A stretch of DNA of 64,000 bases from an uncultured delta proteobacterium (lineage in GTDB: Bacteria > Desulfobacterota > Binatia > UBA9968), in the NCBI GenBank assembly GCA_963804165.1, contig CAWDPO010000043.1, positions 64,001 to 128,000 on the forward strand, in the 5' to 3' direction. Positions 3,141 to 60,444 of this stretch are shown piece after piece. The notes below the pieces were generated by a model. That model made no database searches and had not been told where the DNA came from. It saw only the letters and a program-made list of their open reading frames with translations. Position 1 is the first letter of the stretch. Every line of letters begins with the position of its first letter. The position numbers and the translations under genes are program-made.

Positions 3141-3155
3141 GCAATGCGTATGCCA
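3141..3155 (-). promoter_or_regulatory. sigma-54 (-24/-12) promoter
   Basis: TGGCATA-CGCA-TTGC on the minus strand, immediately upstream of 3126. Confidence 0.75.
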
Positions 3156-3287
3156 GATATACACCATCTTCTCGTGATCTCCTTTTTTGCGATGAGGCAC
3201 ACCCACGGGCTCTCGCAGTTGTAATGCGCGCAGACGAATGAAGCTAACCTATTAACTGCGCCGGCTTTCCTGTCTTTGCGCTCGCCG

Positions 3288-3809
3288 CTATTTTTCAGCC
3301 CCGCCAGCCCCGCTTTTTTTCCACACCACGCGGACGAACTTATTATTATGCCCCCACTTGTAAGCGACCTTTCCACCCCGTGCTTTCTTAATAGAGCGTC
3401 CCAACCGCTGCGCCAGCTTCTCGGTCGTGGTCTGGACCCGCCAGCCACTGTTCGCCGCATCCATGCGCATAATCCGCTCCAGCGGATTTTTCTCCCGCGC
3501 GCGCGACTCTTCGTTGCGCAAGATTCTCGCAATCTCTCCGCGGCTTTCCGCCTCAACGCCGCGCAGAGTCAGCTCACCGCCCGGAAACCTATCCTGAATC
3601 TTCCGGCACGCGGGACAGAAAACAAGATGGCTCTGTATTTGGCTGCTAAATTCACCGGGCGGCGTCAGAGTCCAATGGCGCCGATGGTGAAACGCGCCGC
3701 AGCCACTGCACTGTATGACGCCCTTCGGATCCAGTCGCGGCAGGTACATATCTCTTTCGACATGACCCTTCTTGTACAAGGTGTTGTATTTTTTTGGTGC
3801 TGCTCGCAT
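3288..3809 (-). CDS. BCAM0308-family protein (zinc ribbon, NMD3-like)
   Basis: CSGCGA...CPACRKIQDRFPGG...NPLERIM...TTTEKLAQRLG...VRVVW. Confidence 0.8.
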   Translation of the reverse strand: MRAAPKKYNTLYKKGHVERDMYLPRLDPKGVIQCSGCGAFHHRRHWTLTPPGEFSSQIQSHLVFCPACRKIQDRFPGGELTLRGVEAESRGEIARILRNEESRAREKNPLERIMRMDAANSGWRVQTTTEKLAQRLGRSIKKARGGKVAYKWGHNNKFVRVVWKKSGAGGAEK

Positions 3810-3826
3810 ATATACGCTCCTCGCTA

Positions 3827-4150
3827 TTAAGTTTTCGCCGTCAGCGTGTCCAACCAGGCGCCGAGCGGACCGCGGCCAATTTTTCTGACGATTGCCTCGA
3901 GCTCACCCGGATCCAACCAAATTCCACCGCATTGATGGCAGCGATCGAGCGCGAATCCCTCGAAGGTATAACCCTCCAGCTTGCCGGGACATTTGGGACA
4001 GCTACGCGGTGTTCCAACAGTCTCGACCTTACGAAGTTGACTGCGGAGTTTTTCCAAGACCTCCCGATCTCGCTCCGCAAAGTAAATGTCTTCTTTGGCT
4101 CTCTCGACAAGACGCATAGTATCGCCAAATCGATCCTTTTCATTTTCCAT
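3827..4150 (-). CDS. zf-TFIIB (zinc ribbon) domain protein
   Basis: CPKC...DRCHQCGGIWLDPGEL; RBS GGAGGT before ATG 4150. Confidence 0.8.
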   Translation of the reverse strand: MENEKDRFGDTMRLVERAKEDIYFAERDREVLEKLRSQLRKVETVGTPRSCPKCPGKLEGYTFEGFALDRCHQCGGIWLDPGELEAIVRKIGRGPLGAWLDTLTAKT

Positions 4151-4187
4151 ATATCTCACCTCCACGGCTTTCACCCAGTCAAAGAAC

Positions 4188-4202
4188 GCAGCTTTGATGC
4201 CA
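4188..4202 (-). promoter_or_regulatory. sigma-54 promoter
   Basis: TGGCATC-AAAG-CTGC on the minus strand. Confidence 0.7.
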
Positions 4203-4281
4203 GCAGGCGTACGATCTTATTTACTTTTTGTTGAATTGGGAGAGGAGGATACGCAGGAGAGCGGCGCTGGCATTACCTAAA

Positions 4282-4330
4282 ATTATCAAAATCGCTAAAG
4301 ATCGGCCGCTCGTTTCGTGCCTTTGCGAAA
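4282..4330. promoter_or_regulatory. putative enhancer (UAS) palindrome pair
   Basis: ATTATCA-AAAT-CGCTAAA (4282) and TTTCGTG-CCTT-TGCGAAA (4313), 31-bp offset, between divergent sigma-54 promoters. Confidence 0.55.
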
Positions 4331-4377
4331 TTAGCTCTGGTGACGGAGAGGCTCCGCAGCTTTTCGCGAAGCTCCAC

Positions 4378-4392
4378 GGGCATCTCTTTTGC
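4378..4392 (+). promoter_or_regulatory. sigma-54 promoter
   Basis: GGGCATC-TCTT-TTGC upstream of the cytochrome c gene. Confidence 0.65.
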
Positions 4393-4451
4393 GTTGCTGA
4401 TGATTCAGTTACTTTGCACTAATGGAATGCTTCGACTTGAAAAGGAGGGGG

Positions 4452-4859
4452 ATGAAGATGACGATCAGACTTTTTAGGTGGATCACCGCGGCAGTCGTGC
4501 TGTTTGCACCGATGATGCAATCTTTCGCGGACGAGAATGGCGGTAAAGAAATGTATTTGAAGTATTGCGCCTCCTGCCATGGGAGCCAAGGGAGGGGCGA
4601 CGGCCCGGTCAGTCGCGATTTGAAGGTCAAGGTTCCCGACTTGACGCTATTGCGAAGCAAGAACAAAGGCACTTACCCGCTGGATCGAGTGATGTCTTCG
4701 ATCGACGGCAGTCGCGTCGTGCGCGCGCACGGCGATCGTAACATGCCGGTGTGGGGCGAAGTGTTTAGGAAAGAACACGAAAAACAAAAATATACCGAGT
4801 TGACCTCACTTCTCAAAGCTAAGCTCATCGCCGAATATGTCGGCACATTGCAAAAATAG
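4452..4859 (+). CDS. periplasmic monoheme cytochrome c
   Basis: Signal peptide, CASCH heme motif, HG..MPVWG distal Met; RBS AAGGAGG. Confidence 0.9.
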   Translation: MKMTIRLFRWITAAVVLFAPMMQSFADENGGKEMYLKYCASCHGSQGRGDGPVSRDLKVKVPDLTLLRSKNKGTYPLDRVMSSIDGSRVVRAHGDRNMPVWGEVFRKEHEKQKYTELTSLLKAKLIAEYVGTLQK

Positions 4860-5044
4860 TTTGAAGTCTTTTGCGCTTTGGCTACGGCCCTCGGCTTCGC
4901 AATTTAGTCGGCGAACTCTTCACGATGTTTCATACGGCAGAAGTCTTTTTAATAACGTGACCAGCCCTTACCGAGACAAATATCCGCTCACGCCTAGGTA
5001 TAACGTGGCTGCTGTGGGTTTGGAGAAACTTTGAGAGCTCGGGT

Positions 5045-5863
5045 ATGAGCGAAATTTACGGTTTCGACACTTATTCACCCAAGGAAATCGCCGAACGCGT
5101 TGAGACTATTGGAGTAGCAAAGGCGCGGTTGCCGCTATTGTCGCAGATCATGTTGGGCGTTCTCGCGGGCGGCTTCATCGGCCTGGGGGCGCTTTGCTTC
5201 ACCCTCGTGACCAGCGACACCAGCCTCGGCTTTGCCGCCAGCCGGCTACTTGGCGGTCTGGCTTTCTCGCTGGGTTTGATCCTCGTGGTCGTGGCCGGCG
5301 CGGAGCTTTTTACTGGAAACAATCTTTTGGTAATGGCCTGGGCGAGCAAGCGAATCACCACCGGTGAGTTGTTAGAAAATTGGCTTGTTGTCTACCTGGC
5401 CGATTTCGCCGGCGCCATTGGCCTGGCCTGTCTCGTCTACTTCTCGGGCCATTGGGAAATGAACGACGGAGGGGTCGGTGCTAACATGGTGAAGATCGCT
5501 GCGGCCAAAGCCGCCATACCATTCTGGGAAGCCTTCTTTAAGGGAATACTTTGCAACATCCTAGTCTGTCTCGCGGTGTGGCTCGCGTTGGCCGGACGCA
5601 GTGTAATCGATAAGATCTTCGCGATTATTTTTCCCATCTCGGCATTCGTCGCCGCGGGCTTCGAACATAGCATCGCCAACATGTACTTCATCCCACTCGG
5701 CATTTTAGTCCAAGGACATTTCTCCGCTTCCGGCTCAGCAGCATTAAATTGGACGGGCCTCCTCACCAACCTCATCCCAGTGACGCTGGGGAATATGGTA
5801 GGTGGTGGCGTGATGGTCGCGGCTGTGTATTACCTCGTCTATCGTCATCACGCCGTCGATTGA
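5045..5863 (+). CDS. formate/nitrite transporter (FNT, FocA/NirC family)
   Basis: GAELFTGNN, KGILCNILVCLAVW, GFEHSIANM and LGNMVGG motifs. Confidence 0.95.
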   Translation: MSEIYGFDTYSPKEIAERVETIGVAKARLPLLSQIMLGVLAGGFIGLGALCFTLVTSDTSLGFAASRLLGGLAFSLGLILVVVAGAELFTGNNLLVMAWASKRITTGELLENWLVVYLADFAGAIGLACLVYFSGHWEMNDGGVGANMVKIAAAKAAIPFWEAFFKGILCNILVCLAVWLALAGRSVIDKIFAIIFPISAFVAAGFEHSIANMYFIPLGILVQGHFSASGSAALNWTGLLTNLIPVTLGNMVGGGVMVAAVYYLVYRHHAVD

Positions 5864-5895
5864 AAAATTTTTAGATAGCCCGCCTTGCCCGCTTA

Positions 5896-6366
5896 TCAAG
5901 CGGCTTTAGCCATCGTCCCAGCCCGCTCCCGCCGTGGAACTACCAAGACGGGGCACGGCGCACGTGCCACGACCTTTTCCGCAATGCTGCCCAAAATGAA
6001 GTGGTCGACGCCGGTCCGACCGTGAGTCGACATCACGATCAAATCGACGGCCTCGTCGGCCGCCTTCTCGACGATATTTTTGTGCGATGTGCCAAACTCA
6101 ACTGCGTAACGCACCTCGACCAAGTCGATGCAGTCGGCGAAATTATCGGCAACAAACTTTTCCAACAGCCGCCGGCTCTCTTCCAGCATGTCGTGATAAG
6201 CCGTGACTTTCGGCGGTTTGTCTTTCCACTCGCCACCGACTTCTATGGCGTGGTAAACGACAACTTCGGCGCTCGCATCGCGCGCCATCTCCAAGGCATA
6301 CCGAAGTCCAACCTTCGATATTTCGGAAAGGTCGGTCGGCGCCAATATCTTTTTGACTCTAGTCAT
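5896..6366 (-). CDS. universal stress protein (single domain)
   Basis: ILAPTDLS...MSTHGRTGVDHFILGSIAEKVV...PCPVLVV; RBS GGAGG. Confidence 0.95.
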   Translation of the reverse strand: MTRVKKILAPTDLSEISKVGLRYALEMARDASAEVVVYHAIEVGGEWKDKPPKVTAYHDMLEESRRLLEKFVADNFADCIDLVEVRYAVEFGTSHKNIVEKAADEAVDLIVMSTHGRTGVDHFILGSIAEKVVARAPCPVLVVPRRERAGTMAKAA

Positions 6367-6404
6367 AGGAACCTCCTTCGTTTTCGCTCTCGCTCCTGGG
6401 AGGT

Positions 6405-6908
6405 TCAAGTTTCCTTCAAGCTGTCCTTTAGAAACCCCAGGAGCTCTATGTGCTTTTCCGAATCTCGCATCATGGCATCCAGAAGAATTTTAAAGACGCC
6501 GTGGTAGTAACCGCTGCTCTCTTTCAGGAGCGTCTTGCATTCTTTTATGCCCTCTTTTTCAAGCTCGATAAATTCTTCAGTGCTTGCACGAAGCCGCCCG
6601 TTGAGCATGGCAAGGTCGGCCGTGCCCTCAAGGCTCCCTTCCGGCCTCGTCCAAGTGAGGCTGCCTTTCAGTGTGGCGATCATCGCGTGAATCACTGCAC
6701 GATGCTTCTCCTCATCGGAGATGACAAGCTGCAAGATAAACTTGGTGACCGGATTCGGTAACCCGCCCATGAGTGTCTTGTATTGTTCAATGGACTTTTC
6801 TTCCTTTGCTTCATGAGCTTCAAATTCATTGAGCAACCGCTCGATGGGAGATATTTCCGCCGATGCCTTCGTGCTGAACAGCCCTCCCATTCCATAGATC
6901 TCGTCCAT
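6405..6908 (-). CDS. ferritin-like (rubrerythrin-type four-helix) protein
   Basis: E...Y...SDEEKH and E...RDSEKH diiron-type ExxH repeats. Confidence 0.7.
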   Translation of the reverse strand: MDEIYGMGGLFSTKASAEISPIERLLNEFEAHEAKEEKSIEQYKTLMGGLPNPVTKFILQLVISDEEKHRAVIHAMIATLKGSLTWTRPEGSLEGTADLAMLNGRLRASTEEFIELEKEGIKECKTLLKESSGYYHGVFKILLDAMMRDSEKHIELLGFLKDSLKET

Positions 6909-6997
6909 AACGTCCCCCTTCCCTGCTTCGCTTAATTTCGTTTTGGCACACGAATCATTCTTCCCTGTTGAACCGGTTTCCTGTAACTGTCTCTAGC

Positions 6998-7012
6998 GCA
7001 AAACACATGCCA
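6998..7012 (-). promoter_or_regulatory. sigma-54 promoter
   Basis: TGGCATG-TGTT-TTGC on the minus strand. Confidence 0.8.
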
Positions 7013-7060
7013 TCAAAGAACGGAACAAATACTTGTGATTACACTCGCATTGAAAATTTT

Positions 7061-7108
7061 TCTCTTAGTTGTGAGAACTTTACTTGTTGGTTTCGCAGCT
7101 GTGCGAAT
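7061..7108. promoter_or_regulatory. putative enhancer (UAS) palindrome pair
   Basis: TCTCTTA-GTTG-TGAGAAC (7061) and TTTCGCA-GCTG-TGCGAAT (7091), 30-bp offset. Confidence 0.6.
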
Positions 7109-7216
7109 AAAAATTCGGCGAGGCGCTGCTTTCATTACGATAATTGCGCGCTTGAGCACCGGCACGAAAATCGCTCATGTGAACGATCGTCGGACTAGTC
7201 CGGCTGTTTTTTAGCA

Positions 7217-7231
7217 TGGCGCGCAAATTGG
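7217..7231 (+). promoter_or_regulatory. sigma-54 promoter (variant -12)
   Basis: TGGCGCG-CAAA-TTGG upstream of gap; GG instead of GC at -12. Confidence 0.5.
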
Positions 7232-7355
7232 GGACTCCAGGAGTAGTCGTATAGGCCCAATACGCTCAGTGGCCAAACATTATTATTTCACCAGAGCAGC
7301 TTCGCGATCGCTTTCAACCCGTAACGATCCGCGGCTGCAGTTGAAAGGATCTCTC

Positions 7356-8369
7356 ATGCCAACCAATCTCGCAATCAACGGCTTTGGCCGCATCGGCCGG
7401 CTCGTACTACGTACCCTAATGGCACGCTACAAAACAAATCTCACGGTGATCGCCATCAACGATATGGCCGACTTGAAAACCAATGCCCATTTGTTTCGCT
7501 ACGACTCCACCTACGGAATCTATCCGGGAACAATTGAAACGGGCGATGGTACAATGACTGTCGACGGACGAAAAATCAGCGTACTCAACCAGAAGGATCC
7601 CTCCCGTTTGCCCTGGAAAGAGTTGGGTGTCGACATTGTCATCGAAGCGACCGGCGTTTTTACCGACGCTGCCCAGGTGCGAGCCCATCTAAACGCCGGC
7701 GCGAAAAAAGCGATTGTTACCGCTCCCGCCACTCACGAAGACATTACCGTTGTGCTTGGCGTCAATGACACCGACTACAATCCGCGCAAGCACCATATCG
7801 TCTCCAATGCATCGTGCACGACCAACTGTCTGGCGCCGGTGGCTAAAGTGCTCCACGACAATTTCGGCATTGAGCGCGGTCTCATGACGACTATCCATGC
7901 CTACACCAACGATCAAAGGATTCTTGACTTGATGCATAAAGATCTCCGCCGAGCCCGGGCAGCTGCGATGAATATCGTGCCGACCAGCACCGGTGCCGCA
8001 AAGGCCATCGGCCTTGTCATGCCGGAGTTAAAAGGCAAGCTGCATGGCATCTCGCTGAGAGTACCGACATCAACGGTCTCCGTCGTCGACCTAGTAGTCG
8101 ATCTTAAACATTCGGCAACAATGGAGAATATCAATGAAGCCTTGAAGCAAGCGGCAGAAGGGCCAATGAAGGGCGTCCTTGTCTTTTGCAGCGAGCCGCT
8201 AGTATCCAGTGACTTTCGCGGCAATCCCGCTTCGTCGATTGTCGACGGTCTATCGACGGTAGTGCTTGATGGCAAGATGGCCAAGGTGCTGAGCTGGTAC
8301 GACAACGAGTGGGGTTACAGTTGCCGCGTCGCAGACCTCGCAATGTTGATAGCGGAAAAAGGATTCTAG
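7356..8369 (+). CDS. gap: type I glyceraldehyde-3-phosphate dehydrogenase
   Basis: [21 protein letters not shown] and WYDNEWGYS motifs. Confidence 0.98.
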
Positions 8370-8381
8370 GAGGAGCAAGCC

Positions 8382-8771
8382 ATGATAGCGAAGGATTTTA
8401 TGACCCGTGACATCATTACGGTTAGCCCGAGCACCAAAGTTAAGAATTTGGCCATGATCTTGATCAAGAATCAGATCAGCGGTGCCCCCGTCGCAAATAA
8501 AAACGGTAAAATCCTCGGCATCGTTTCGGAAGCGGATATCATTGCCAAAAGAGGCAAAGATGCAAAGGCGATCATGAGTAAAAAAGTAATAAGTATCCGG
8601 CAGGATGCATCCGTGGAAGAGATCGCCCAACTCATGGTGACCCACGCTATCAAACGGTTACCGGTCATGGAGGGCGGCAAGATTATCGGAATCGTCAGCC
8701 GCGCCGACATCGTCAACGCCATCGCGATGGGCGAGCACGTCGCGTGGTACACGCCAATTTACGACTTGTAG
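8382..8771 (+). CDS. CBS domain-pair protein
   Basis: ISGAPV...GIVSEADII and IKRLPV...GIVSRADIV. Confidence 0.93.
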   Translation: MIAKDFMTRDIITVSPSTKVKNLAMILIKNQISGAPVANKNGKILGIVSEADIIAKRGKDAKAIMSKKVISIRQDASVEEIAQLMVTHAIKRLPVMEGGKIIGIVSRADIVNAIAMGEHVAWYTPIYDL

Positions 8772-8944
8772 GATCTTTCTTACAGCGCGGCAGCATCGGC
8801 AAATCCAATTGCTTAGAATCTCATTAAAGGGATCACACGTGCGTTCTTCCGTAAGCGTTCGCGGAGAAGCCTAAGGAAAGCCGCCGCTATATGATCGCGA
8901 TTCAATTGCACCCTTCTATCTATCCCCGGAAATATTTGTGTTGA

Positions 8945-9394
8945 CTAATGATTACTTTTGGGCCTGATCGATAGTACCGGGCAGGTCGCACGTGCGACAA
9001 CTTTGGCCGTCACGCTGCCTAGCATGACTTGGTCAAGGCCCGTGCGCCCATGCGTAGACATGACGACGATGTCGGCGTTTTCCTCTTGGGCTTTTGTCAC
9101 GATCTTATTGTAAGGGACTCCCGCCTCGACCACTTCTGTGATCTTCACTTTGCCTATAAAATCGGCGAAGTTTTCTTTGACAAACCCGCGCAGACGTTCC
9201 TTTTGCTGCGGCACAAGCGCTCCGGCAGGATTCAAAGAATCATCTTTCCCGAACCAGTCACCGTCTTCGCTGATAACGTGATAAACAATTACCTCCGAAC
9301 CCTGCTCTAACCCGATCTCCAATGCATAGCGAACTGCCGGTCGTGATAGCTTGGAAAGATCCGTCGGCGCGAGAATTCTCTTTGGTTTGGTCAC
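8945..9394 (-). CDS. universal stress protein (single domain)
   Basis: ILAPTDLS...MSTHGRTGLDQVMLGSVT; GTG start with RBS GAGGAG. Confidence 0.93.
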   Translation of the reverse strand: MTKPKRILAPTDLSKLSRPAVRYALEIGLEQGSEVIVYHVISEDGDWFGKDDSLNPAGALVPQQKERLRGFVKENFADFIGKVKITEVVEAGVPYNKIVTKAQEENADIVVMSTHGRTGLDQVMLGSVTAKVVARATCPVLSIRPKSNH

Positions 9395-9442
9395 GACAAG
9401 CTCCTCTACTTTGAATCTCCCTAGACTTGGACGAAGAGAAGC

Positions 9443-9457
9443 GCAAAAAATATGCCT
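9443..9457 (-). promoter_or_regulatory. sigma-54 promoter
   Basis: AGGCATA-TTTT-TTGC on the minus strand. Confidence 0.7.
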
Positions 9458-9505
9458 TCATTCTCGCAGCGATTCTCGGTTTCCTTGTTCCCTTGGCTCG
9501 TTTTG

Positions 9506-9554
9506 TTTCGCACCTTTGAAAAAATTTGACCGAACTTTTCTCGTCCTTGGCAAT
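9506..9554. promoter_or_regulatory. putative enhancer (UAS) palindrome pair
   Basis: TTTCGCA-CCTT-TGAAAAA (9506) and TTTCTCG-TCCT-TGGCAAT (9537), 31-bp offset. Confidence 0.65.
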
Positions 9555-9602
9555 AAATCTTCTCAACCGATGAAACTCGCAGGCACATTTAAGCGTAATT
9601 CT

Positions 9603-9617
9603 TGGCACAGACAGTGC
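9603..9617 (+). promoter_or_regulatory. sigma-54 promoter
   Basis: TGGCACA-GACA-GTGC. Confidence 0.75.
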
Positions 9618-9687
9618 ACATACGACTTGTTAGAACTTTAGGACACGACCTATGAATTTCGTAGCATCTATCGGGAGGTACAGTTGG

Positions 9688-10098
9688 ATGAAAGTCGCCG
9701 ATGTCATGAGCAAAGAGCCCCTCACAATCGCAGCCACGGAAACGATCCGGCAGGCCGACGAGCTGATGTCGGAAAACAACATTCGCCAGATCCCGGTCGT
9801 CAACGGTCGAGACCTTGTCGGTATCATTACCGACCGAGACATTCGGTCGTTCCTCAGCGGTTCCTTGCTCGGCGATCCCGAAGCGAGGGAGGAAGCCCTT
9901 GGGACAACGGTCCGCGACGTCATGACCACCGTACCCATATTCGTTTCTCCGAATGACGATCTGGAGGAGGCGGCGGAATTGCTGATCGAGGAAAAGATCG
10001 GCGGAATCCCGGTCGTGGATGAAGTGGAAGGCTTGGTCGGCATCATCACTTACATCGATTTACTGCGCTGCTTTTTGAACCGAATACAGGAGGACTGA
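9688..10098 (+). CDS. CBS domain-pair protein
   Basis: IRQIPVV...GIITDRDI and IGGIPVV...GIITYIDLL; RBS GGAGG. Confidence 0.93.
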   Translation: MKVADVMSKEPLTIAATETIRQADELMSENNIRQIPVVNGRDLVGIITDRDIRSFLSGSLLGDPEAREEALGTTVRDVMTTVPIFVSPNDDLEEAAELLIEEKIGGIPVVDEVEGLVGIITYIDLLRCFLNRIQED

Positions 10099-10099
10099 C

Positions 10100-10522
10100 A
10101 TGAAAAACGGCAAAGAAGGTCTCGTCACAGAGATCATGATGGGTAGTCCGGTTACACTCAAACCGGAGGACACGCTCGATCTAGCCAACGACGTGATTTC
10201 GCTCGGGCGGATACGCCACATACCCGTCGTGGACGCCGGCCGGCTCGTGGGTTTGCTGAGCGAGCGGGACCTGCTGGGCGCTGCAGCGAGTCAGATCTTT
10301 GGCTTGAAGCAGAAAAGCAAGTCGGCGCTGCTAAAAACCGTGTTGATCAGAGACGTAATGAAAAAACGGGTGGCAACGGTCACGACCGATACGTCGATCA
10401 AGGAGGCCGCTCATCTGATGCGCGATAAAAAAATAGGCTGCCTGCCCGTCGTCAGCGGCAACGCCGTCGTCGGATTAGTGACGACGACGGACATTCTGAG
10501 ATATGTCGAGAGACTGGGGTGA
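10100..10522 (+). CDS. CBS domain-pair protein
   Basis: IRHIPVV...GLLSERDLL and IGCLPVV...GLVTTTDIL. Confidence 0.93.
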   Translation: MKNGKEGLVTEIMMGSPVTLKPEDTLDLANDVISLGRIRHIPVVDAGRLVGLLSERDLLGAAASQIFGLKQKSKSALLKTVLIRDVMKKRVATVTTDTSIKEAAHLMRDKKIGCLPVVSGNAVVGLVTTTDILRYVERLG

Positions 10523-10679
10523 TGAAATGCCAACTAGCCGGATCATCAACCTTGTTCATGGACCGACGAACAATCACGATCACTTGGAGGCCGGCGCGCA
10601 GATTCGGTCGGTTCCATAATCGTGCTGGGGAATTCAAAACCACAAACTAACTTCGCTAAGCGAAGACGACGGAGGGCAT

Positions 10680-10972: not shown

Positions 10973-11254
10973 ATGTTATGTGATTCTCACAGAGACAGGC
11001 AACCTCCTGAATTTGCTAAGCTGCGGGACTGTCTCTCTGCAACCTGGGTCACCGCCGGCGTCCTTACGAAGCTGGCTAAGCATCTTGCTATACTTGCCAG
11101 TCTCACGATCCTAGGCGAATCCACGGGTCGAATCGCCGTCGGCCAACTCGCCATCTTCATTCTTATCGTCCTGGCCGCCTTCTCCCACACGCTCGGACGC
11201 ACGCTCCGGTTGCACTTGCGTAGGCAAACCGCCTTGAGCAAGAGCGTGCCATGA
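10973..11254 (+). CDS. small two-TM membrane protein coupled to the P-type ATPase
   Basis: Two hydrophobic segments; stop overlaps the ATPase start (ATGA); start uncertain. Confidence 0.45.
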   Translation: MLCDSHRDRQPPEFAKLRDCLSATWVTAGVLTKLAKHLAILASLTILGESTGRIAVGQLAIFILIVLAAFSHTLGRTLRLHLRRQTALSKSVP

Positions 11255-51952: not shown

Positions 51953-51984
51953 TTATAAGGCCAGGAGCTAAGTTGTATTCCGAG

Positions 51985-54237: not shown

Positions 54238-54337
54238 GTCCCACACCACCAGTACACAGACACTGTTCTTCTCCTCAATTCGCGAAACGGGACCAAACAG
54301 ATTACTCGCAGTTTGGAGGCAGGAATTGGAGGATACC

Positions 54338-54376
54338 TTTCGTAGCTTTGGCGATCCATTTGCCAAATCTGAGAAA
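54338..54376. promoter_or_regulatory. putative enhancer (UAS) palindrome pair
   Basis: TTTCGTA-GCTT-TGGCGAT (54338) and TTTGCCA-AATC-TGAGAAA (54359), 21-bp offset. Confidence 0.5.
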
Positions 54377-54478: not shown

Positions 54479-54493
54479 TGGCACATGCTTTGC
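54479..54493 (+). promoter_or_regulatory. sigma-54 promoter
   Basis: TGGCACA-TGCT-TTGC. Confidence 0.85.
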
Positions 54494-54541: not shown

Positions 54542-54655
54542 ATGGTAAGCGAAACCGAACTTTTCTATCTTGTGCTGCTGACGCTGCTGACGCTGATCAT
54601 GCATTTGATCCTTTCACGGAAGCACCGTCGGGATGACAAGCATTCTCACGCGTAG
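54542..54655 (+). CDS. single-TM microprotein, copy 2 (37 aa)
   Basis: MVSETELFYLVLLTLLTLIMHLILSRKHRRDDKHSHA*; RBS GAGG. Confidence 0.72.
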   Translation: MVSETELFYLVLLTLLTLIMHLILSRKHRRDDKHSHA

Positions 54656-54702: not shown

Positions 54703-55830
54703 TCATACAGTGGATGAGCGGGTCTTGTTGCGATCCGCCACGCGACCGCGGCAAGACTTTACATCCGGTAAGGGGCAGTATCGTCGCAGAATCGGATCCA
54801 GGCAACTGTAGCGGTACGGAAAGCGATGCTGGTAAGCGGAGTGAACGACGCTTTGAAGCTCCGTAGTTGAAAGCTCGATATCGTTTCGGTGGTTCCATTC
54901 AAGTAGTTTTTGTTCTGTTTCATCTCTGGATAACCCCGTCAGGCGAAATTCCGAGGCAAGCCTGATTGCGCAATTATTTCGATAACCGGGCTCGATGTGA
55001 CTTTCCCAGATCTTGCGCACTCCCGCGCAAACGAAGTCGAGTTTAGACAAATCAGGCGGACGGGGAATGCGATAGACAAACGGCTTGCGCGTGAGCTTGG
55101 TCGTTTGGCGCCGAACTCGACTGAACAGTTCCGCCGCTTTCGGATTCGCGCTGATATCGACGCGCGAAACCAAGCCGGTCTCATCGGTTACCTTCAAAGG
55201 TCTCGCCGTGCGCGCGATCTCGCGAATCTGCTTGGGGTCTAACCTCTCAATTTCGCTCGGAGTCAGAATTATTTTATATAACTTGGACTTCTCGTGAATC
55301 GTGTTTGGCAATCGTAGCAAGCGAACTCGATCTTTGATCGAGAGATCGACGGTTTCGCGAACGCGTTCGGGCAGCTCATGCGCTAAATGGCGCCGAATAG
55401 AGTCGAAAATCATCGGCAGATGCTTCGAAGGCGCGATTCGACCGAAAAGCCGAGTATCCAGCAAGATATGAAACCCTTTGAGGCCGCTGAAATAAATCTG
55501 TAACGCCTGGGTACGTAGCGCCCACCGTTCGAGCAAAAAAGCACTCAAGCGCTTGGCTGCCTCCAGCGCCGGCGTTATCTCCACATGATCCAGGTCAATG
55601 GGTAAGAACGGGGCCCAGGCTTTGCCCTCAAAGCCGGCAATACTCGGCGCCCTGTCATCCTGAGCACTCATGTAAGTCAGGACTTCATCAGAGAAGAAAA
55701 AATAGGTGGCATAGCAGCCGTAGTAGTTAAATGATTTCGCCAGCGCCGGGACCTCCGTGATCGAAACAATATGGTTTCGAAAGCCCTTTTGATAGTGCGC
55801 CGCAAAATCCACGAAATGAAAGCGCCGCAT
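54703..55830 (-). CDS. archaeo-eukaryotic primase (AEP)-like protein with primase C-terminal domain
   Basis: PIDLD (motif I), YFSGLKGFH (motif II), DLSI...LLRLPNT (motif III); C-terminal GYRNN..IRLA...L.EWN; Cys cluster. Confidence 0.8.
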   Translation of the reverse strand: MRRFHFVDFAAHYQKGFRNHIVSITEVPALAKSFNYYGCYATYFFFSDEVLTYMSAQDDRAPSIAGFEGKAWAPFLPIDLDHVEITPALEAAKRLSAFLLERWALRTQALQIYFSGLKGFHILLDTRLFGRIAPSKHLPMIFDSIRRHLAHELPERVRETVDLSIKDRVRLLRLPNTIHEKSKLYKIILTPSEIERLDPKQIREIARTARPLKVTDETGLVSRVDISANPKAAELFSRVRRQTTKLTRKPFVYRIPRPPDLSKLDFVCAGVRKIWESHIEPGYRNNCAIRLASEFRLTGLSRDETEQKLLEWNHRNDIELSTTELQSVVHSAYQHRFPYRYSCLDPILRRYCPLPDVKSCRGRVADRNKTRSSTV

Positions 55831-56038
55831 AACTTGATTATAACGCCCGTCTTGCGCGACCTGAAACCATAGCCACCTCTCGGCACAATCTCGATTGCGT
55901 GATTCCGAAGAGCAAAACCCCGGCCGCTCGGACCGTAGTGCTCGACAGCGTGCTCGATCCAACACGGCGAAACTGCCTCAATCGAACCGTTCCCACCAGC
56001 GATGCAATCTCATGTGAACTCACGCGCAGTGTTGGCGT

Positions 56039-56087
56039 TTTCCTACCAGTGCAAAATCTAACTGCTGAATTTCTCATTAGTAAAAAC
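56039..56087. promoter_or_regulatory. putative enhancer (UAS) palindrome pair
   Basis: TTTCCTA-CCAG-TGCAAAA (56039) and TTTCTCA-TTAG-TAAAAAC (56070), 31-bp offset. Confidence 0.6.
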
Positions 56088-56148
56088 AATTGTCGAGGCG
56101 GTGGTAGTGCGCAATTGTTTCTAGAGCATTTTTCTTGTTCTGCGCCAA

Positions 56149-56163
56149 TGGCACAACTCGTGC
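56149..56163 (+). promoter_or_regulatory. sigma-54 promoter
   Basis: TGGCACA-ACTC-GTGC. Confidence 0.75.
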
Positions 56164-56258
56164 TCCTTCTTTCTCACGAGAAAGGTTTGACGCCTGACGA
56201 ATGGTGCAGCAGCCATTCGCGGGTACTATTAAGCCATAGAGGAGCAGAAGCCATCAGC

Positions 56259-56432
56259 ATGCCTACTTACGAATTTCTTTGTGAAAAATGCCACAAAATG
56301 TTTGATGTCGTCTGGTCGCTCGCGGAATACGACAAACGAATCAAAGAAAAGCACAAATGTCCGTCATGCGGCAGCACAAGAGTCGTCAAAACCCTCTCTA
56401 TGGTTCAGGTAAAAACATCAAAAAAGAGCTAA
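56259..56432 (+). CDS. FmdB-family zinc ribbon protein
   Basis: MPTYEFLCEKC...CPSCGS...TSKKS. Confidence 0.9.
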   Translation: MPTYEFLCEKCHKMFDVVWSLAEYDKRIKEKHKCPSCGSTRVVKTLSMVQVKTSKKS

Positions 56433-56466
56433 AGACTCCTGACGTTCGGCTTGGAAGGCCTACTCT

Positions 56467-56898
56467 ATGAATACCGGCGCCGCCACAATCAGACCGGAGA
56501 CAACCGTCGGCGAAGTAAGGACCATAGATCTGGTCACGCTAAAGCTCGACGATACCCTGCGCCTCGCCGACGATTTGATGAATCTTACCCAAGTGCATCA
56601 CTTCCCGGTTTTGGATGGAGACTCAGTGGCAGGGGTAATTAATCAGAACGACCTGCTGCACGCTTCAATGGTCTCGTTAGTGCGCCATCGTCAAGACGCT
56701 GTTCGTGACGCCTTAGGTGAGGTCAAGGTCAAAGCCGTGATGAAGCCGGCAACAATGGTTTCGTCCGACATGTCGATCAATGAGGCGGCTAGGATCATGG
56801 TGGAGCGCGAGCTTGAGTGTTTGCTCGTTTTAGAAGGAGAAAAACTGGCCGGGCTCGTAAGCCGCACGGATCTCCTGAGAGAATTGGCCAAGCAATGA
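56467..56898 (+). CDS. CBS domain-pair protein
   Basis: VHHFPVL...GVINQNDLL and GLVSRTDLL. Confidence 0.9.
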   Translation: MNTGAATIRPETTVGEVRTIDLVTLKLDDTLRLADDLMNLTQVHHFPVLDGDSVAGVINQNDLLHASMVSLVRHRQDAVRDALGEVKVKAVMKPATMVSSDMSINEAARIMVERELECLLVLEGEKLAGLVSRTDLLRELAKQ

Positions 56899-56941
56899 TT
56901 GTCGCCACCGCTCGGCTAAAGCGAAAGTCAAGGAGGGAACT

Positions 56942-57562
56942 ATGCTCGTGAGTTACCGTATGACCAAGGAACCTATCACTGTCGAGCCGGATGATTTGTT
57001 GAGCCGCGCGGCGCATGAGATGAAGGCGGGCGGCTTTCGCCGGCTCCCGGTGGTGAGCAACGGGAAGCTCGTGGGTATCGTCACGGACCGAGACTTGCGA
57101 GAGCACCGTGGTCATTTGGAACACACCAAGATCAATGGCGCGATGTCCGAAAAGCTGTTCACGGTTAGTCCTGAAATCACTCTGGAAGAGGCCGCGCAAG
57201 TCATGTTGGAACAGCAAATCGGCGGTCTGCCGGTGGTTCACGAAGGGCGACTCGTCGGCATCATCACGGCCAGCGACGTGATGCGAGCTTTTCTTGACGT
57301 CATGGGAGCTTCGAATGGCGGCAGTACGCGCATCGACTTCGTCCTCGAAGGCGAAGAGCACGGGCTTAACGAGGCCTCGCGCGTCGTCGCGCGCGAGCGT
57401 GGCGAAGTCTTAGGAGTCGGCACCTATCGCGACAAAGTGGGTAATAATCCGATTTGTTACCTGCGCTTGATCTCGGGGAACGCCGATAAGATCGCCAAAG
57501 CGCTCCGCGCTAGCGGTTTCGATGTTTTGGGCGTGCACAGAATTGGCGGTGAGGCGAAGTGA
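56942..57562 (+). CDS. CBS pair + ACT-like domain protein (AcuB-like)
   Basis: FRRLPVV...GIVTDRDL and IGGLPVV...GIITASDV; C-terminal ACT-like beta/alpha segment. Confidence 0.9.
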   Translation: MLVSYRMTKEPITVEPDDLLSRAAHEMKAGGFRRLPVVSNGKLVGIVTDRDLREHRGHLEHTKINGAMSEKLFTVSPEITLEEAAQVMLEQQIGGLPVVHEGRLVGIITASDVMRAFLDVMGASNGGSTRIDFVLEGEEHGLNEASRVVARERGEVLGVGTYRDKVGNNPICYLRLISGNADKIAKALRASGFDVLGVHRIGGEAK

Positions 57563-57588
57563 TATTCTCGTGAAGGAGGATCTGTCTT

Positions 57589-58017
57589 ATGTCATTGCAA
57601 AATTTCTGTCGCAAACCTTTGGTTAAAGTTTCGCCGGATACGAACATAACCAAGGCCTGCCGCCTTATGGCAAAGAACAAAGTCGGTTGCTTGGTCGCTG
57701 AGAAAGACGGCGAGCTCTGCGGGATTATCACTGACCGCGACATCGCGCTGCGGGTGGCTGGCGCACGGAAAGATCCGCAGGAAACATTGGTCAAAGACGT
57801 TATGACGCCGGATCCAATTCGTATTTCCGCGGATAAAGATTTACCCCAGCTCATGGCTCTCATGCACGCCCATCACGTGCGGCGCATGCCGATCGTGAAC
57901 GGCTTCAGTACGACGCTGGGAATCGTCACGTTCGACGATCTGATCGCTCAGGTGGGTAACCAGATGTCGGAGATGGGCAAGACGATAGCCGAGGAATTTT
58001 TTCAAGGGAACGCTTAA
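57589..58017 (+). CDS. CBS domain-pair protein (Hrp1/Rv2626c-like)
   Basis: VGCLV...GIITDRDIALR and VRRMPIV...GIVTFDDL. Confidence 0.92.
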   Translation: MSLQNFCRKPLVKVSPDTNITKACRLMAKNKVGCLVAEKDGELCGIITDRDIALRVAGARKDPQETLVKDVMTPDPIRISADKDLPQLMALMHAHHVRRMPIVNGFSTTLGIVTFDDLIAQVGNQMSEMGKTIAEEFFQGNA

Positions 58018-58530: not shown

Positions 58531-58633
58531 CCGCGAATTATCGATTCAGCTAGTCGTGCCGACCTTTTATGATTGACGCTCACCTCGCCACTGGCTTCCA
58601 CACTCTCGGAGGTGCCGCTCGGAACGGCTCGTT

Positions 58634-59125
58634 TCATGCAGCATCGGTCGACTGAGGATCGCTACGGGCTAGCATGTCACGAATTTGAGCCCGATGCTTT
58701 TTGCTGTCGCTTTCAATGCCTTCGAAAAGCTCCGCGATGTCAGGAAACTCGCGACCGAGCACCGGCAGATCGTCTTTCAACTCTCCGGCGCAGCGTTGCT
58801 CTTCTTCGAGATCCGTTCGCAGATAAAATCAGCTGTTGGGTTCTTTGGCAACGTGGATCGGAATAACGTTAGGGAGCTTTTCTCCTAGATCTCTTATTTT
58901 CGCGCCAATCATTTCAGCGTGTCTTTCCTCTTCTCCGGCCAGGCCGAGAAGCATATCGCGAAACTGAGGATAACGCATTCTTTCGGCATGCTGACGGTAG
59001 CGCATACCGTGCTGCTTTTCTCTGAGATAGCGATGGCGCAACACGTTCAGCATGGCCGCACGCGATTCCTCTTTAGAGCCAAACAGCCTTGCCCACCAAT
59101 CCGACGGTTTCACTCGGAGCGCCAT
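58634..59125 (-). pseudogene. ferritin-like protein with an in-frame TGA at 58829-58831
   Basis: Paralog of 59883..60374; the frame continues after NS* as FYLRTDLEEEQRCAGEL...DSKKH...MLARSD; the paralog has Trp at that position. Confidence 0.78.
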
Positions 59126-59169
59126 AGCGTCCTCCTTTCTGAAGGACCAATCTCTATGTACATAAAAAC

Positions 59170-59184
59170 GCAAAGTTCAAGCCA
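59170..59184 (-). promoter_or_regulatory. sigma-54 promoter
   Basis: TGGCTTG-AACT-TTGC on the minus strand. Confidence 0.75.
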
Positions 59185-59243
59185 GCGATTAACCGCTCTG
59201 GATTCACGAATAGCGGTCCAAAGCGCGCCAAATCGGATAAGCC

Positions 59244-59292
59244 ATTGTCATTGTGAAGAATCGACCCAAGGAAGATTCGCAGGAATGCAATT
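59244..59292. promoter_or_regulatory. putative enhancer (UAS) palindrome pair
   Basis: ATTGTCA-TTGT-GAAGAAT (59244) and ATTCGCA-GGAA-TGCAATT (59275), 31-bp offset. Confidence 0.55.
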
Positions 59293-59315
59293 TGCCGGGT
59301 GCGACGTGGCTGAAT

Positions 59316-59759
59316 TTAGGGGCTGACTTGCCGGTTGCCGTGGCAGTAAACACAGGCTCCAGTGACAGATCCGGCGAGCAGAAAGTTCGGCGGATCATGG
59401 CGAATCGAATCGCCGGCGATTTTGATATCACGCAGAAAATCCGAACGATTCTCATCGATCAGCGGATGGTTGGACGGCCAACCGGTTCGATTGAGTTCTC
59501 TCCCCGCTCGCTCCATGGCGTCGAGGTGCTCGAGAATTTCTTCACGATGCGACTCCGGTGTCACAGATGATATCATCAACCGGTTAAGTTCTCGTGAGTG
59601 GTAAGCCAACTGCCACATGGTCGAGCGCAGTTGCTCGGAAGTAATGTAATGGAATCCCGGCGGATAGGTATATTGACGCAGCCAACCCGCGAAATTTGCG
59701 CATCCCATCGCCGACAACCAGAGCAAAACAGCAACAAGTGAAAGAATCTGGCTATTCAT
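59316..59759 (-). CDS. lipoprotein c-type cytochrome with C-terminal heme motif (cytochrome c'-like topology)
   Basis: Lipobox AMGC; helical body; CVYCH near the C-terminus. Confidence 0.8.
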   Translation of the reverse strand: MNSQILSLVAVLLWLSAMGCANFAGWLRQYTYPPGFHYITSEQLRSTMWQLAYHSRELNRLMISSVTPESHREEILEHLDAMERAGRELNRTGWPSNHPLIDENRSDFLRDIKIAGDSIRHDPPNFLLAGSVTGACVYCHGNRQVSP

Positions 59760-59882
59760 ATTGCGGTCACGGCAACCACCACCCGCATCGCAAGGATTGC
59801 GCGATATCTGCGCCGTAAACCACAAGCATAGCCTTGCAGCAAAAACCAACGCCGCCGTTATCCGCGCTCACAATCCCTAGTC

Positions 59883-60374
59883 TTAGGTGAGCGATCCCGC
59901 GAACGCATCGCTGCGCATGAGCATCTCGCGGATTTCGTTACCATGTTTCTTTTCGTCTTTGGAAATTCGCTCCAGCAACATCGCAACGTCGGGATAGTCC
60001 GTTGCCACCGCCCATATCTGCTCCATCAACTCGCCGGCGCAATGATCTTCCTCGTTTAGATCTTTCAGCAGATGTTGCCAGCTACATTGGTCCATTGATG
60101 TTCGCTTCCCTGTTACGTCGGGCAACTTACCTCCTAGGTCGATTATTTTTTTAGCTATCAACCCGGCGTGCTCCGTTTCCTCCGCGGCGATGTGGAGCAA
60201 CTTTTCGCGAAACTGCGGATAATGCATCTCCCCCGCGTGCTGATTAAACTTTTCGGCGTGCACGATTTCGTCCATATATCGCGTGCGCAGAATGTCCAGA
60301 GCCGTGCGCCGCGCTTCGTCGCCAATGCCCAAAAAACTTCGCCACCAATGAGATAGTTCAGCTCTCATACCCAA
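59883..60374 (-). CDS. ferritin-like protein
   Basis: E...HA..M.YPQFR..L..IAAEETEH...DLNEE...KDEKKH. Confidence 0.82.
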   Translation of the reverse strand: MGMRAELSHWWRSFLGIGDEARRTALDILRTRYMDEIVHAEKFNQHAGEMHYPQFREKLLHIAAEETEHAGLIAKKIIDLGGKLPDVTGKRTSMDQCSWQHLLKDLNEEDHCAGELMEQIWAVATDYPDVAMLLERISKDEKKHGNEIREMLMRSDAFAGSLT

Positions 60375-60429
60375 AGCCTCCTTCCCAGTAAGTTAAACAA
60401 AGTATTTCACGCTACCAGCATTAGTGCAT

Positions 60430-60444
60430 GCATTATCCGCACCA
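60430..60444 (-). promoter_or_regulatory. sigma-54 promoter (weaker match)
   Basis: TGGTGCG-GATA-ATGC on the minus strand. Confidence 0.5.

Follow-up and report, generated by a model that had tools for sequence, protein, structure and literature searches.

A cascade that leads from a haem-containing kinase to an NtrC-like activator and a sigma-54-dependent hypoxia regulon has been described in Myxococcus xanthus, where the haem-dependent NmpU acts via NmpS on the NtrC-like NmpR (PMC11841059). NmpR recognises GCGCA-N5-TGCGC sites at sigma-54 promoters, and most of these sites are separated by 14-15 nt. Its regulon comprises seven promoters and 23 genes, and NmpR up-regulates its own operon (the first gene of which codes for a CBS protein), a universal stress protein (USP), a P-type ATPase together with the cbb3 oxidase, and a hemN-hemerythrin unit; one NmpR-target promoter was shown to be hypoxia-induced (PMC11841059). 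Here we analyse a stretch of 64,000 nucleotides from an uncultured delta proteobacterium of soil (Desulfobacterota; Binatia; UBA9968), called the window throughout. We consider it rather likely that the window holds the core of a regulon in which stress- and dormancy-type genes lie behind sigma-54 promoters with one shared enhancer and are run by a local haem kinase and a local NtrC-type activator.

The original prediction for this DNA, which was made from the sequence alone, had proposed a hypoxia and dormancy regulon and knew of no description of such a system. Because of NmpRSTU, the wiring concept as such has to be regarded as already published (PMC11841059). The regulon itself stood up as a coherent sigma-54 regulon with a shared enhancer, whereas the O2 signal, suggested by homology to FixL, and the dormancy output, suggested by the gene content, are plausible. 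A search of the full-text literature returned no description of a FixL-type kinase and a sigma-54 activator controlling USP or Hsp20 genes, and nothing on sigma-54 in Binatia.

The window corresponds to positions 64001-128000 of contig CAWDPO010000043.1 (C43, 436 kb) of assembly GCA_963804165.1 (G000; 7.5 Mb, 46 contigs, rated 81% complete). Coordinates without prefix are window positions, and those with the prefix C43 refer to the whole contig. The gene context was derived with a simple, crude codon-bias gene caller and scans against Pfam and NCBIfam.

Sigma-54 promoters in the window

Nineteen sites resembling TGGCAC-N5-TTGC had been listed for the window. We searched for this pattern allowing at most one or at most two mismatches and used 100 dinucleotide shuffles and 633 genome windows as background. 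With at most one mismatch, 17 matches were found in the window; the shuffles contain 4.83 on average (standard deviation 2.13, maximum 11), and none of the 100 reaches 17. The whole genome contains 561 such matches, which corresponds to 4.8 per 64 kb, and with its 17 matches the window is in the top 3 of the 633 windows. The roughly 20% of the genome left non-coding by the gene calls holds 247 of the 561 matches, 146 of which face a gene start within 350 nt. These 146 intergenic, gene-oriented sites served to train a sigma-54 matrix. At a cut-off of 12 bits the matrix finds 527 sites in the genome (4.5 per 64 kb) and 21 in the window, which ranks first among the 633 windows. The genome-wide matrix scan, proposed with the prediction as a check, thus places the site density of the window above background. 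With at most two mismatches the signal is diluted (85 matches in the window versus a shuffle mean of 65; one shuffle in 100 reaches 85).

The density of sites is high in other places as well, namely on contig C40 (~24-225 kb) and in parts of C23, C1 and C24. Density alone therefore does not define a regulon, C40 being the most prominent of these other regions.

The quality of the single sites was assessed with the matrix. Sixteen of the 19 score between 12.5 and 22.3 bits, and at the level of sequence these sites are confirmed. The remaining three are not credible promoters: site 7217 scores 3.7 bits and has GG in place of the -12 GC (an alternative at 7160 reaches 9.8 bits), site 40351 scores 8.6 bits and reads TGGAAC, and site 60430 scores -3 bits. 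The sites had been described as intergenic, which holds for 18 of the 19 on the basis of the crude gene calls; site 36435 sits 46 nt inside an open reading frame (ORF), the first start codon of which was probably called too early. They had also been described as correctly oriented. Seventeen do face a gene start, but 40351 and 60430 do not. Six outward-facing pairs share one intergenic region each (4188/4378, 6998/7217, 9443/9603, 21159/21318, 36260/36435 and 41018/41261). At the -12 element, 12 of the 18 printed sites read TTGCGC or TTGCGT, an extension that was outside the search pattern.

One further matrix site of 14.5 bits, missed by the original prediction, lies 103 nt 5' of the activator gene, and sites 41261 and 54479 each face one of two paralogous small hydrophobic-peptide ORFs that the first pass had also missed. 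The window contains at least 16 sigma-54 promoters, and ~27 promoter-like sites are found in the first 170 kb of C43; the genes behind them belong to stress responses, to energy sparing and to anaerobic metabolism. The genome has one rpoN gene, identified by a single Sigma54_DBD match on C38 (E 5e-62).

A shared enhancer palindrome

Expectation-maximisation on 13 upstream and inter-promoter regions yielded, de novo, the motif GTTTCGCA-N4-TGCGAAA. The enhancer consensus is a 16 bp palindrome, TTCGCA-N4-TGCGAA, which is present in perfect form (TTCGCAGCTGTGCGAA) at 7092-7107, inside the tandem pair 7060-7109. Enrichment of 6-8-mers gave modest signals on its own, for example CTCGCAG with 7 occurrences versus 0.84 expected, and the motif became clear only by expectation-maximisation.

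With at most two mismatches the 16-mer occurs 419 times in the genome, 122 times in intergenic DNA; 23 of the intergenic copies are on C43, 21 of them at 12-156 kb. A palindrome located 20-250 nt upstream was found for 21 of the 561 sigma-54 sites. Thirteen of these 21 promoter-palindrome pairs are on C43, 12 of them at 35-156 kb, and the other eight are singletons on eight contigs, as compared with a chance estimate of ~7 and a count of 5 in the downstream control. In this genome the combination of promoter and palindrome is almost confined to C43:35-156 kb, and the cluster therefore reaches beyond the window.

We also used an independent palindrome matrix, built from 30 sites of relatives only, with empirical p values from 5,000 random segments and a search range of -20 to -140. 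With this matrix, sites with an empirical p of at most 0.02 accompany 16 of the 19 listed promoters. Since divergent partners share sites, the 16 promoters yield 10 distinct best sites.

The distances between the palindrome centre and the GG of the -24 element fall into classes of ~38.5, 48.5, 58, 69, 79, 90, 100, 110 and 120 nt, that is, into steps of ~10.3 bp. For 59 pairs from the genome itself, four relatives and L001, a metagenome-assembled genome of a Candidatus Binatia bacterium, the Rayleigh R is 0.62 at a period of 10.0. Because orthologous pairs are not independent, the pooled p value overstates the phasing and the figure for the own cluster alone is safer (19 pairs, Rayleigh R 0.60, p ~0.001). 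Twelve promoter-palindrome pairs elsewhere in the genome showed no significant phase (R 0.13-0.39).

The palindromes are also spaced regularly with respect to each other. In six regions, 30 of 56 neighbouring palindromes (at least 9 bits, at most 80 bp apart) are exactly 31 bp apart and 40 of 56 are 30-32 bp apart. There are 25 tandem pairs in the genome, 18 on C43 and nine in the window, mostly with a sigma-54 site on one or both sides. As the enhancer often sits between two divergent promoters, one enhancer appears often to serve both of them. The known layout of NtrC-type enhancers consists of paired dyad sites that are three helical turns apart and on a fixed face relative to the promoter. 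The shared, phased and tandem enhancer, which had not been seen before in this DNA, supports the existence of a coherent sigma-54 regulon here. Outside the cluster, tandem palindromes made up of weaker sites were found at C5:26253 (before a receiver-domain gene), C43:399447 (genes of unknown function) and C43:431081 (TctCBA transporter); these may belong to other activators.

The activator and its own control region

The prediction of one sigma-54 activator in the island proved correct. The gene at 50490-51842 (minus strand) encodes an NtrC-type response regulator, for which Pfam gives a receiver domain (REC, E 4e-28), an AAA+ domain (Sigma54_activat, 3.5e-68) and a Fis-type helix-turn-helix (HTH_8, 1.6e-11). 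Among the 28 full-length activator genes and one split gene of the genome, it is the only one on C43. The protein is not an equivalog of a named NCBIfam family; the best score is 413 bits for AtoC versus a cut-off of 714, and NtrC, ZraR, NtrX and NorR are below their cut-offs.

The control region of the gene (51856-51963, minus strand) consists of the promoter TGGCCT-N5-ATTGC at 51949-51963 (14.5 bits) and two palindromes at 51887-51902 and 51856-51871. The centres of the palindromes are 31 bp apart, and the pair is located just before the activator ATG. The same arrangement is found in 14 loci of the genus: TGGCCT-N5-ATTGC is kept and is followed ~45 nt further on by two palindromes with centres 30-31 bp apart, and the surroundings have diverged. 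This leader double palindrome is the strongest link that suggests a connection between activator and enhancer. Because the gene is the sole activator gene on C43 and carries the same double palindrome in its own leader in 14 genomes, the local NtrC-type activator is the best candidate for the regulator.

Of 24 genomes of the same genus, 15 were found to encode an orthologue of the activator with at least 80% identity, the unpublished G005 among them. Two other families of the order, represented by 16 genomes, yielded no orthologue, the best identity there being at most 43%. Among named records, L001 comes closest to the activator gene (80% identity), and there the kinase and activator genes are adjacent as well.

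Contig C40 has a larger sigma-54-rich region at 24-225 kb, with 40 promoter-like sites and three activator genes and without the TTCGCA-N4-TGCGAA enhancer. When the 40 promoters were searched de novo, a weak TGTCGCAAAAxTxGGA-like motif emerged, but no clean palindrome. The activator encoded at C40:19444-20604 is frameshifted and no more than 42% alike. In many genomes of the genus (G016:C231, G012:C100, G021:C67 and others) there is an activator of ~315-350 amino acids without receiver domain, 54-59% identical to residues 131-449 of the activator of the window; at the threshold used it was not seen in the assembly of the window.

The haem-PAS kinase

Next to the activator gene lies a histidine kinase gene at 51985-54366 (minus strand; ORF of 793 amino acids, likely true start 54237), the product of which contains PAS_3, PAS_4, two tandem FixL-type haem-PAS, HisKA and HATPase domains according to Pfam. 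With four or five PAS domains in all, two of them haem-PAS, and no membrane segment seen, it agrees with the soluble FixL-type kinase that had been proposed. The haem-PAS domains (~residues 320-440 and 445-570) form a tandem duplication and are C-terminal among the PAS domains.

In a sequence search of PDB the second haem-PAS domain matched the haem domains of Bradyrhizobium and Sinorhizobium FixL (E 4e-28 to 3e-27, 40-45% alike). The proximal His and two Arg equivalents (FG loop and G strand) are conserved in the FixL alignment; we take the aligned FixL residues to be His200, Arg206 and Arg220. The first haem-PAS domain, 74% identical to the second in a self-alignment, shares this His and Arg motif, and within the genome the EHDxYIxRY form is unique to this kinase. 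The regulator adjacent to the kinase is NtrC-type and not FixJ-type (NarL/LuxR helix-turn-helix). By homology to FixL, the kinase would sense O2 via haem.

Conservation in relatives and beyond the genus

The upstream region of the Hsp20 gene was aligned for eight loci from seven genomes. Both divergent promoters, the proximal palindrome TTTTCA-N4-TGCGAA and the distal palindrome TCGCA-N4-TGCGA are kept, and the rest has diverged. Not included in this alignment were four partial or lower-identity loci, a second copy with 49% identity, the short L135 and the locus of the unpublished G005. Promoter conservation in relatives, another of the proposed checks, is therefore seen in the footprints at Hsp20 (8 loci) and at the activator leader (14 loci). 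Synteny, proposed alongside it, was not found. Gene order is not conserved, and few first-gene orthologues are present within ~60 kb (four relatives) or 10 kb (L001); Hsp20 sits 61-69 kb from the activator in two of the relatives (G015 and G014).

The regions round the activator in four relatives (~100 kb each in G014, G003, G015 and G019) and in L001 (21 kb) contain 8-21 sigma-54 sites per 64 kb, many of them with a palindrome at the same phased distances. When 31 genomes were searched for the combined motif TGCGAA-N35-65-TGGCAY-N5-TTGC, 74 matches were obtained versus 2 for the reversed control.

Beyond the genus, a FixL-like haem-PAS kinase is encoded beside a ~40%-identical activator in 3 of the 79 other loci retrieved with the activator (L046, L037 and L045), with the His and Arg residues kept. 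All three belong to Acidobacteriota and have USP genes and sigma-54-like sites nearby, L046 also a P-type ATPase gene. The upstream repeats in these loci look different by eye and are of the form GGGAA...TTCCC.

In two runs of sediment metatranscriptomes, RNA-library contigs of relatives, 90-99% alike, cover 27 and 24 of 30 bins, among them the CBS genes and the 167-amino-acid ORF; starts, strand and level cannot be read from these contigs, and carry-over of DNA is possible. In one run search, no sequencing run contained at least half of the words from 3000-10600, and an Rfam scan of the window at gathering thresholds gave no match.

Promoter units and cargo of the window

The stress-type cargo that had been named in the original prediction was confirmed by Pfam and NCBIfam as regards the USPs, Hsp20, the CBS proteins, the P-type ATPase and the BCAM0308-family protein (3288-3809; NF040826 with 111.5 bits, cut-off 100). 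Judged from strand and spacing, the units in the window would span ~55 genes.

The divergent pair in front of Hsp20 consists of 21159-21173 (minus strand, 21.6 bits), which faces Hsp20, and 21318-21332 (plus strand, 19.4 bits), which faces pyruvate:ferredoxin oxidoreductase; a tandem palindrome at 21211-21261 lies in between. Behind 21159 there is a run of nine genes on the minus strand (14745-21099), for which Pfam indicates Hsp20, four single USPs, three tandem-USP proteins and an adenosine-specific-kinase-like protein. Strand and spacing suggest that this run is an operon.

Four further divergent pairs flank a tandem palindrome. At 4281-4331 it lies with 4188-4202 (minus strand, 12.5 bits), in front of a Zn-ribbon and the BCAM0308-family protein, and 4378-4392 (plus strand, 13.2 bits), in front of cytochrome c and a formate/nitrite transporter. 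The palindrome at 9505-9555 is flanked by 9443-9457 (minus strand, 15.2 bits) before a USP gene and by 9603-9617 (plus strand, 13.8 bits), which is followed by two CBS genes, two small ORFs and the P-type ATPase at 11251-14769 (Pfam). Promoter 36260-36274 (minus strand, 16.8 bits) precedes a malic-enzyme fragment, a tandem USP and a cation-efflux protein; its partner across the palindrome at 36324-36374 is 36435-36449 (plus strand, 14.5 bits), which precedes a DUF2267 protein and then an AAA_33 protein of 528 amino acids (37671-39257). The palindrome at 41093-41143 is accompanied by 41018-41032 (minus strand, 13.5 bits) before an ORF of 88 amino acids and by 41261-41275 (plus strand, 21.6 bits), behind which a small hydrophobic-peptide ORF is located (41330-41563, plus strand). 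In the divergent region 6998-7231, promoter 6998-7012 (minus strand) faces the gene of a 167-amino-acid protein of unknown function and a USP gene, and the weak 7217 or its alternative 7160 (plus strand) faces GAPDH and a CBS protein.

Single promoters complete the picture. Two of them match the consensus perfectly. The first, 31512-31526 (minus strand, 20.9 bits), lies 235 nt before a frameshifted 2-oxoacid dehydrogenase E2 gene and has a single palindrome ~115 nt upstream (empirical p 0.019). The second, 54479-54493 (plus strand, 22.3 bits), is followed by a hydrophobic-peptide ORF of 37 codons (54542-54655) that is paralogous to the one at 41330; the palindrome of this promoter has an empirical p of 0.000, that is, none of the 5,000 random segments scored as high. 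The unit at 56038-58017 (plus strand) is composed of a tandem palindrome (56038-56088), a promoter (56149-56163, 16.3 bits), an FmdB-type Zn-ribbon ORF (56259-56432) and three CBS genes. Promoter 59170-59184 (minus strand, 14.1 bits) lies before a rubrerythrin-like ORF and has a palindrome ~100 nt upstream (empirical p 0.014). A tandem palindrome is also found at 60571-60622, upstream of a ferritin-like gene (59883-60374), where the promoter proposed at 60430 is not credible. For 3141-3155 (minus strand, 20.8 bits), located before CarboxypepD_reg, cupredoxin, DUF6448 and hemerythrin genes, no palindrome was found (empirical p 0.28), and this promoter may therefore answer to another activator.

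Several features of the cargo were noted besides. The ORFs 41330-41563 and 54542-54655 encode a near-identical hydrophobic peptide, M-A/V-SETELFYLVLLTLLTLI..., behind two of the strongest sigma-54 promoters of the window; no family match was obtained for these peptides. The P-type ATPase at 11251-14769 has 1172 amino acids, is of type II (Ca/Na-K-like) and carries an N-terminal PTS EIIA-2 (PtsN-like) domain, a fusion that is unusual given the usual link of PtsN to rpoN operons. Conserved enzymes are split or truncated in adjacent frames at 21366-22219, 23613-24035, 25196-26298, 30067-31277, 35652-36218 and C43:44484-46951; the genes concerned encode subunits of pyruvate:ferredoxin oxidoreductase, glutamate dehydrogenase, an E2 acyltransferase, malic enzyme and a P-type ATPase.

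A low-scoring ORF of 420 amino acids (54703-55965) with a PriCT_1 (primase C-terminal) domain separates the kinase gene from the CBS operon and may be the remnant of a mobile element. A block in the middle of the cluster has no sigma-54 site of its own; it encodes an OmpR-type response regulator and a kinase followed by three PMT_2 (ArnT-like) glycosyltransferases (41874-49109) and then a PEMT/ICMT-type methyltransferase (49304-49945). The 1.4 kb at 39258-40700 are without a convincing gene; a 46-amino-acid ORF at 39736-39876, behind the weak site 40351, presumably resembles DUF883/ElaB-type proteins.

Extent of the cluster beyond the window

Promoters, palindromes and gene content delimit a cluster of ~120 kb, from about C43:35 kb to 156 kb, with the window as its core. 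On the left-hand side of the window, promoters that have palindromes lie ahead of genes for a CBS/CoA-binding protein, for a glycogen-phosphorylase-like protein, and for a P-type ATPase with a quinol-type nitric oxide (NO) reductase behind it. On the right-hand side, such promoters are found in front of a ribosome hibernation factor gene and another Hsp20 gene, and promoter-like sites without strict palindrome precede an acyl-CoA-synthetase-like gene and then three USP genes. The island had been called self-contained. This description does not hold, as rpoN is on another contig and the cluster passes both ends of the window.

Also left of the window, C43:43-63 kb encodes, besides the quinol-type NO reductase, a cytochrome b/Rieske pair, NapC/NirT, hemerythrins and an MtrB/PioB-type porin accompanied by multihaem cytochromes; within this stretch, C43:50-63 kb holds the cytochrome bc-type and MtrB/PioB porin-cytochrome genes and hemerythrins. 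These genes form an anaerobic or extracellular electron-transfer block that adjoins the stress cluster. At the right end of the window (63476-64000, continuing to C43:128309), a Crp/Fnr-family regulator of 277 amino acids without an obvious N-terminal Cys cluster is encoded next to a tandem-USP gene. This protein could provide a second tier of control.

Discussion

Promoters, enhancer, phasing, pairing, confinement to the cluster, conservation and the domain make-up of the regulators were computed directly. We infer binding of the palindrome by the activator, a partnership between kinase and activator, O2 as the signal and a low-oxygen persistence state as the output. As in FixL, O2 bound to the haem would inhibit the kinase, and with unliganded haem the kinase would autophosphorylate; NO or carbon monoxide (CO) may act as well. 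It would then phosphorylate the adjacent NtrC-type activator, which would oligomerise on the tandem palindromes, loop the DNA to the sigma-54 holoenzyme and open one or two flanking promoters. Via the two palindromes in its leader the activator might also feed back on its own sigma-54 promoter. Assembly of the activator on the palindromes and promoter opening are the best-supported reading of the sequence anatomy and its conservation, and control of the regulon by the local kinase-activator pair is probable.

Several observations weigh against this reading. The case for the regulon is computational throughout, and its gene context depends on the crude gene caller; according to the Pfam scans many genes of the cluster are frameshifted, either from assembly error or from decay. 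The palindrome is absent at the strong promoter 3141, at the weak sites 40351 and 60430, and at the unlisted matrix sites 58469 and 61403. In the activator the loop reads GSFTGA instead of the canonical GAFTGA, with F and T kept. As the leader palindromes are downstream of the activator's promoter, they could equally mean auto-repression. The kinase stays below the NCBIfam cut-off for FixL (NF041777, 381.5 versus 850 bits) and has two further N-terminal PAS domains, which may respond to some other ligand. A paralogue of the activator with 59% identity and a similar recognition helix is encoded at C40:200752-202122; this paralogue has the canonical GAFTGA, and no kinase like that of the window adjoins its gene. 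Finally, nine same-genus genomes without an orthologue of at least 80% identity still hold 10 matches to the combined motif (1.1 each, range 0-3), as compared with 52 matches in 16 genomes with the orthologue (3.25 each), related genomes not being independent in this count. Since matches persist where no orthologue was detected, the count does not settle which activator binds.

These points lead to the alternative that has to be taken most seriously, namely that promoters and palindrome are real and the wiring differs. The palindrome could be bound by another activator, such as the C40 paralogue or one that is missing from the assembly, or the kinase could respond to another signal (NO, CO, redox state or a ligand of the N-terminal PAS domains). 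With 28 full-length activator genes and one split gene the genome offers other candidates, the C-terminal helix-turn-helix of the C40 paralogue is similar, and the motif combination is present in genomes where the orthologue was not detected. As to the signal, the cluster contains an NO reductase, a nitrite-type transporter and hemerythrins, the kinase carries extra PAS domains, and FixL-type haems also bind NO and CO. On the other hand, a single one of the 21 strict promoter-palindrome pairs is on C40, and the C40 promoters yielded a different and weaker motif (de novo, n=40). The leader of the window's own activator gene has kept its double palindrome in 14 loci, and the equivalents of the O2-contacting Arg residues are conserved in the kinase. 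On balance we regard a different wiring as unlikely.

The palindrome could also be the site of a regulator other than a sigma-54 activator, for example of the Crp/Fnr-family protein encoded from 63476 on, which could modulate the promoters; in this case the sigma-54 activators would use other, unrecognised sites. A cNMP-binding (cyclic nucleotide-binding)/helix-turn-helix protein of 277 amino acids is indeed encoded at the right end of the window, and Fnr/FixK boxes are typically palindromic around a 4-bp centre. Crp/Fnr proteins, however, cannot activate sigma-54, and tandem sites that are three helical turns apart and phased 38-120 nt 5' of the -24 element fit activator enhancers; moreover, the activator gene too is marked by the palindrome. 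In Burkholderia, the lxa locus has cargo in common with the window and carries an Anr/Fnr-like TGA-N6-TCA motif (PMC3721108), but in its GCA...TGC core and its 14-15 nt gap the enhancer corresponds to the NmpR sites, which were defined by experiment (PMC11841059). This explanation appears very improbable to us.

That the sites are mere chance or compositional matches without any regulon is hardly conceivable, because the weak enrichment at two mismatches (85 versus 65) and the three poor sites on the list are set against shuffles none of which in 100 reaches the count at one mismatch, first rank among 633 windows, intergenic and correctly oriented sites, a shared, phased and paired enhancer and footprints conserved across species, which already contradict it.

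Control by the local haem kinase and NtrC-type activator is thus the reading we prefer. That this wiring evolved independently is a tentative proposal, with somewhat less than an even chance in our view: a double-haem FixL-type kinase would act directly on an NtrC-type activator and, through a phased double enhancer, on ~30 promoters, genus-wide and with a parallel in Acidobacteriota. If this is true, tight and leak-free sigma-54 control of dormancy would be common among abundant uncultured soil bacteria. Few if any members of Binatia and Vicinamibacterales, two lineages abundant in soil, have been cultured, and the cluster bears on how these lineages survive fluctuating oxygen. It offers a concrete regulon with a promoter class, a 16-bp enhancer with spacing rules, one candidate activator and one candidate haem sensor, all of which can be reconstituted in E. 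coli with synthetic DNA, so that the host need not be cultured. Helical phasing and the layout with one enhancer and two promoters would make it a clean natural system for sigma-54 enhancer geometry. The same cargo would here be under a fourth kind of control, besides DosR in mycobacteria, Anr/Fnr-type regulation in Burkholderia and the NmpR cascade in Myxococcus, which informs on how stress regulons are rewired.

Comparison with known systems

The sensor resembles that of FixL-FixJ. The haem-PAS domains have the proximal His and the Arg residues, and the logic of a soluble, cytoplasmic kinase inhibited by O2 would be expected. The original prediction stated that FixLJ acts through FixK and is not a sigma-54 enhancer system, which is incomplete: Sinorhizobium FixJ also turns on nifA, and NifA is a sigma-54 activator, so that O2 control reaches sigma-54 there too. 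The system described here differs in the NtrC-type partner, in the two tandem haem-PAS domains accompanied by two other PAS domains, and in an output of stress- and dormancy-type genes instead of nif and fix genes.

With DosS/DosT-DosR the system shares haem-based gas sensing and a likely role in non-growing survival at low O2. The overlap in cargo with the DosR regulon that had been pointed out is borne out for USPs, the alpha-crystallin Hsp20, CBS proteins and the P-type ATPase, and extends to the hibernation factor. DosR, in contrast, is a NarL-type regulator at sigma-70-type promoters, and its sensors are haem-GAF instead of haem-PAS proteins; among the Pfam results for the ORFs of the window there is no GerE/LuxR-type helix-turn-helix and no GAF kinase. 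NtrY-NtrX of Brucella and Paracoccus likewise combines a haem-PAS kinase with an NtrC-family regulator and is linked to low-oxygen and denitrification genes. NtrY is membrane-bound, however, and NtrX is reported not to work through sigma-54; we know of no comparable enhancer-promoter regulon for this pair.

The second overlap in cargo that had been pointed out, with the lxa locus of Burkholderia cenocepacia, likewise stands; there too a large cluster holds USP and alpha-crystallin genes together with those for a cation ATPase and a BCAM0308-family protein (PMC3721108). As described there, this locus has the Anr/Fnr-like motif and Crp/Anr-type regulators and not sigma-54 promoters (PMC3721108).

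NmpRSTU is alike in its haem-kinase input, the NtrC-like activator, the sigma-54 promoters, the CBS, USP, P-type ATPase and hemerythrin targets, and the action of the activator on its own operon (PMC11841059). In both systems the sites are GCA...TGC inverted repeats that occur as two, with a gap of 14-15 nt in M. xanthus and of 15 nt (centres 31 bp apart) here. In M. xanthus the input is the globin-coupled NmpU, which works via the hybrid kinase NmpS together with NmpT, whereas here a single soluble double-haem-PAS kinase is encoded beside the activator; architectures of the NmpU, NmpS or NmpT type are not among the Pfam results for the window, to which this search was confined. The sites differ in spacer and flanks (GCGCA-N5-TGCGC versus TTCGCA-N4-TGCGAA), and seven promoters in M. 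xanthus (PMC11841059) compare with ~27 promoter-like sites here, gathered in one ~120-kb cluster with many divergent pairs. The present system is a much larger variant with a direct FixL-type sensor, which differs from NmpRSTU in sensor, site, scale and clustering, and lineage.

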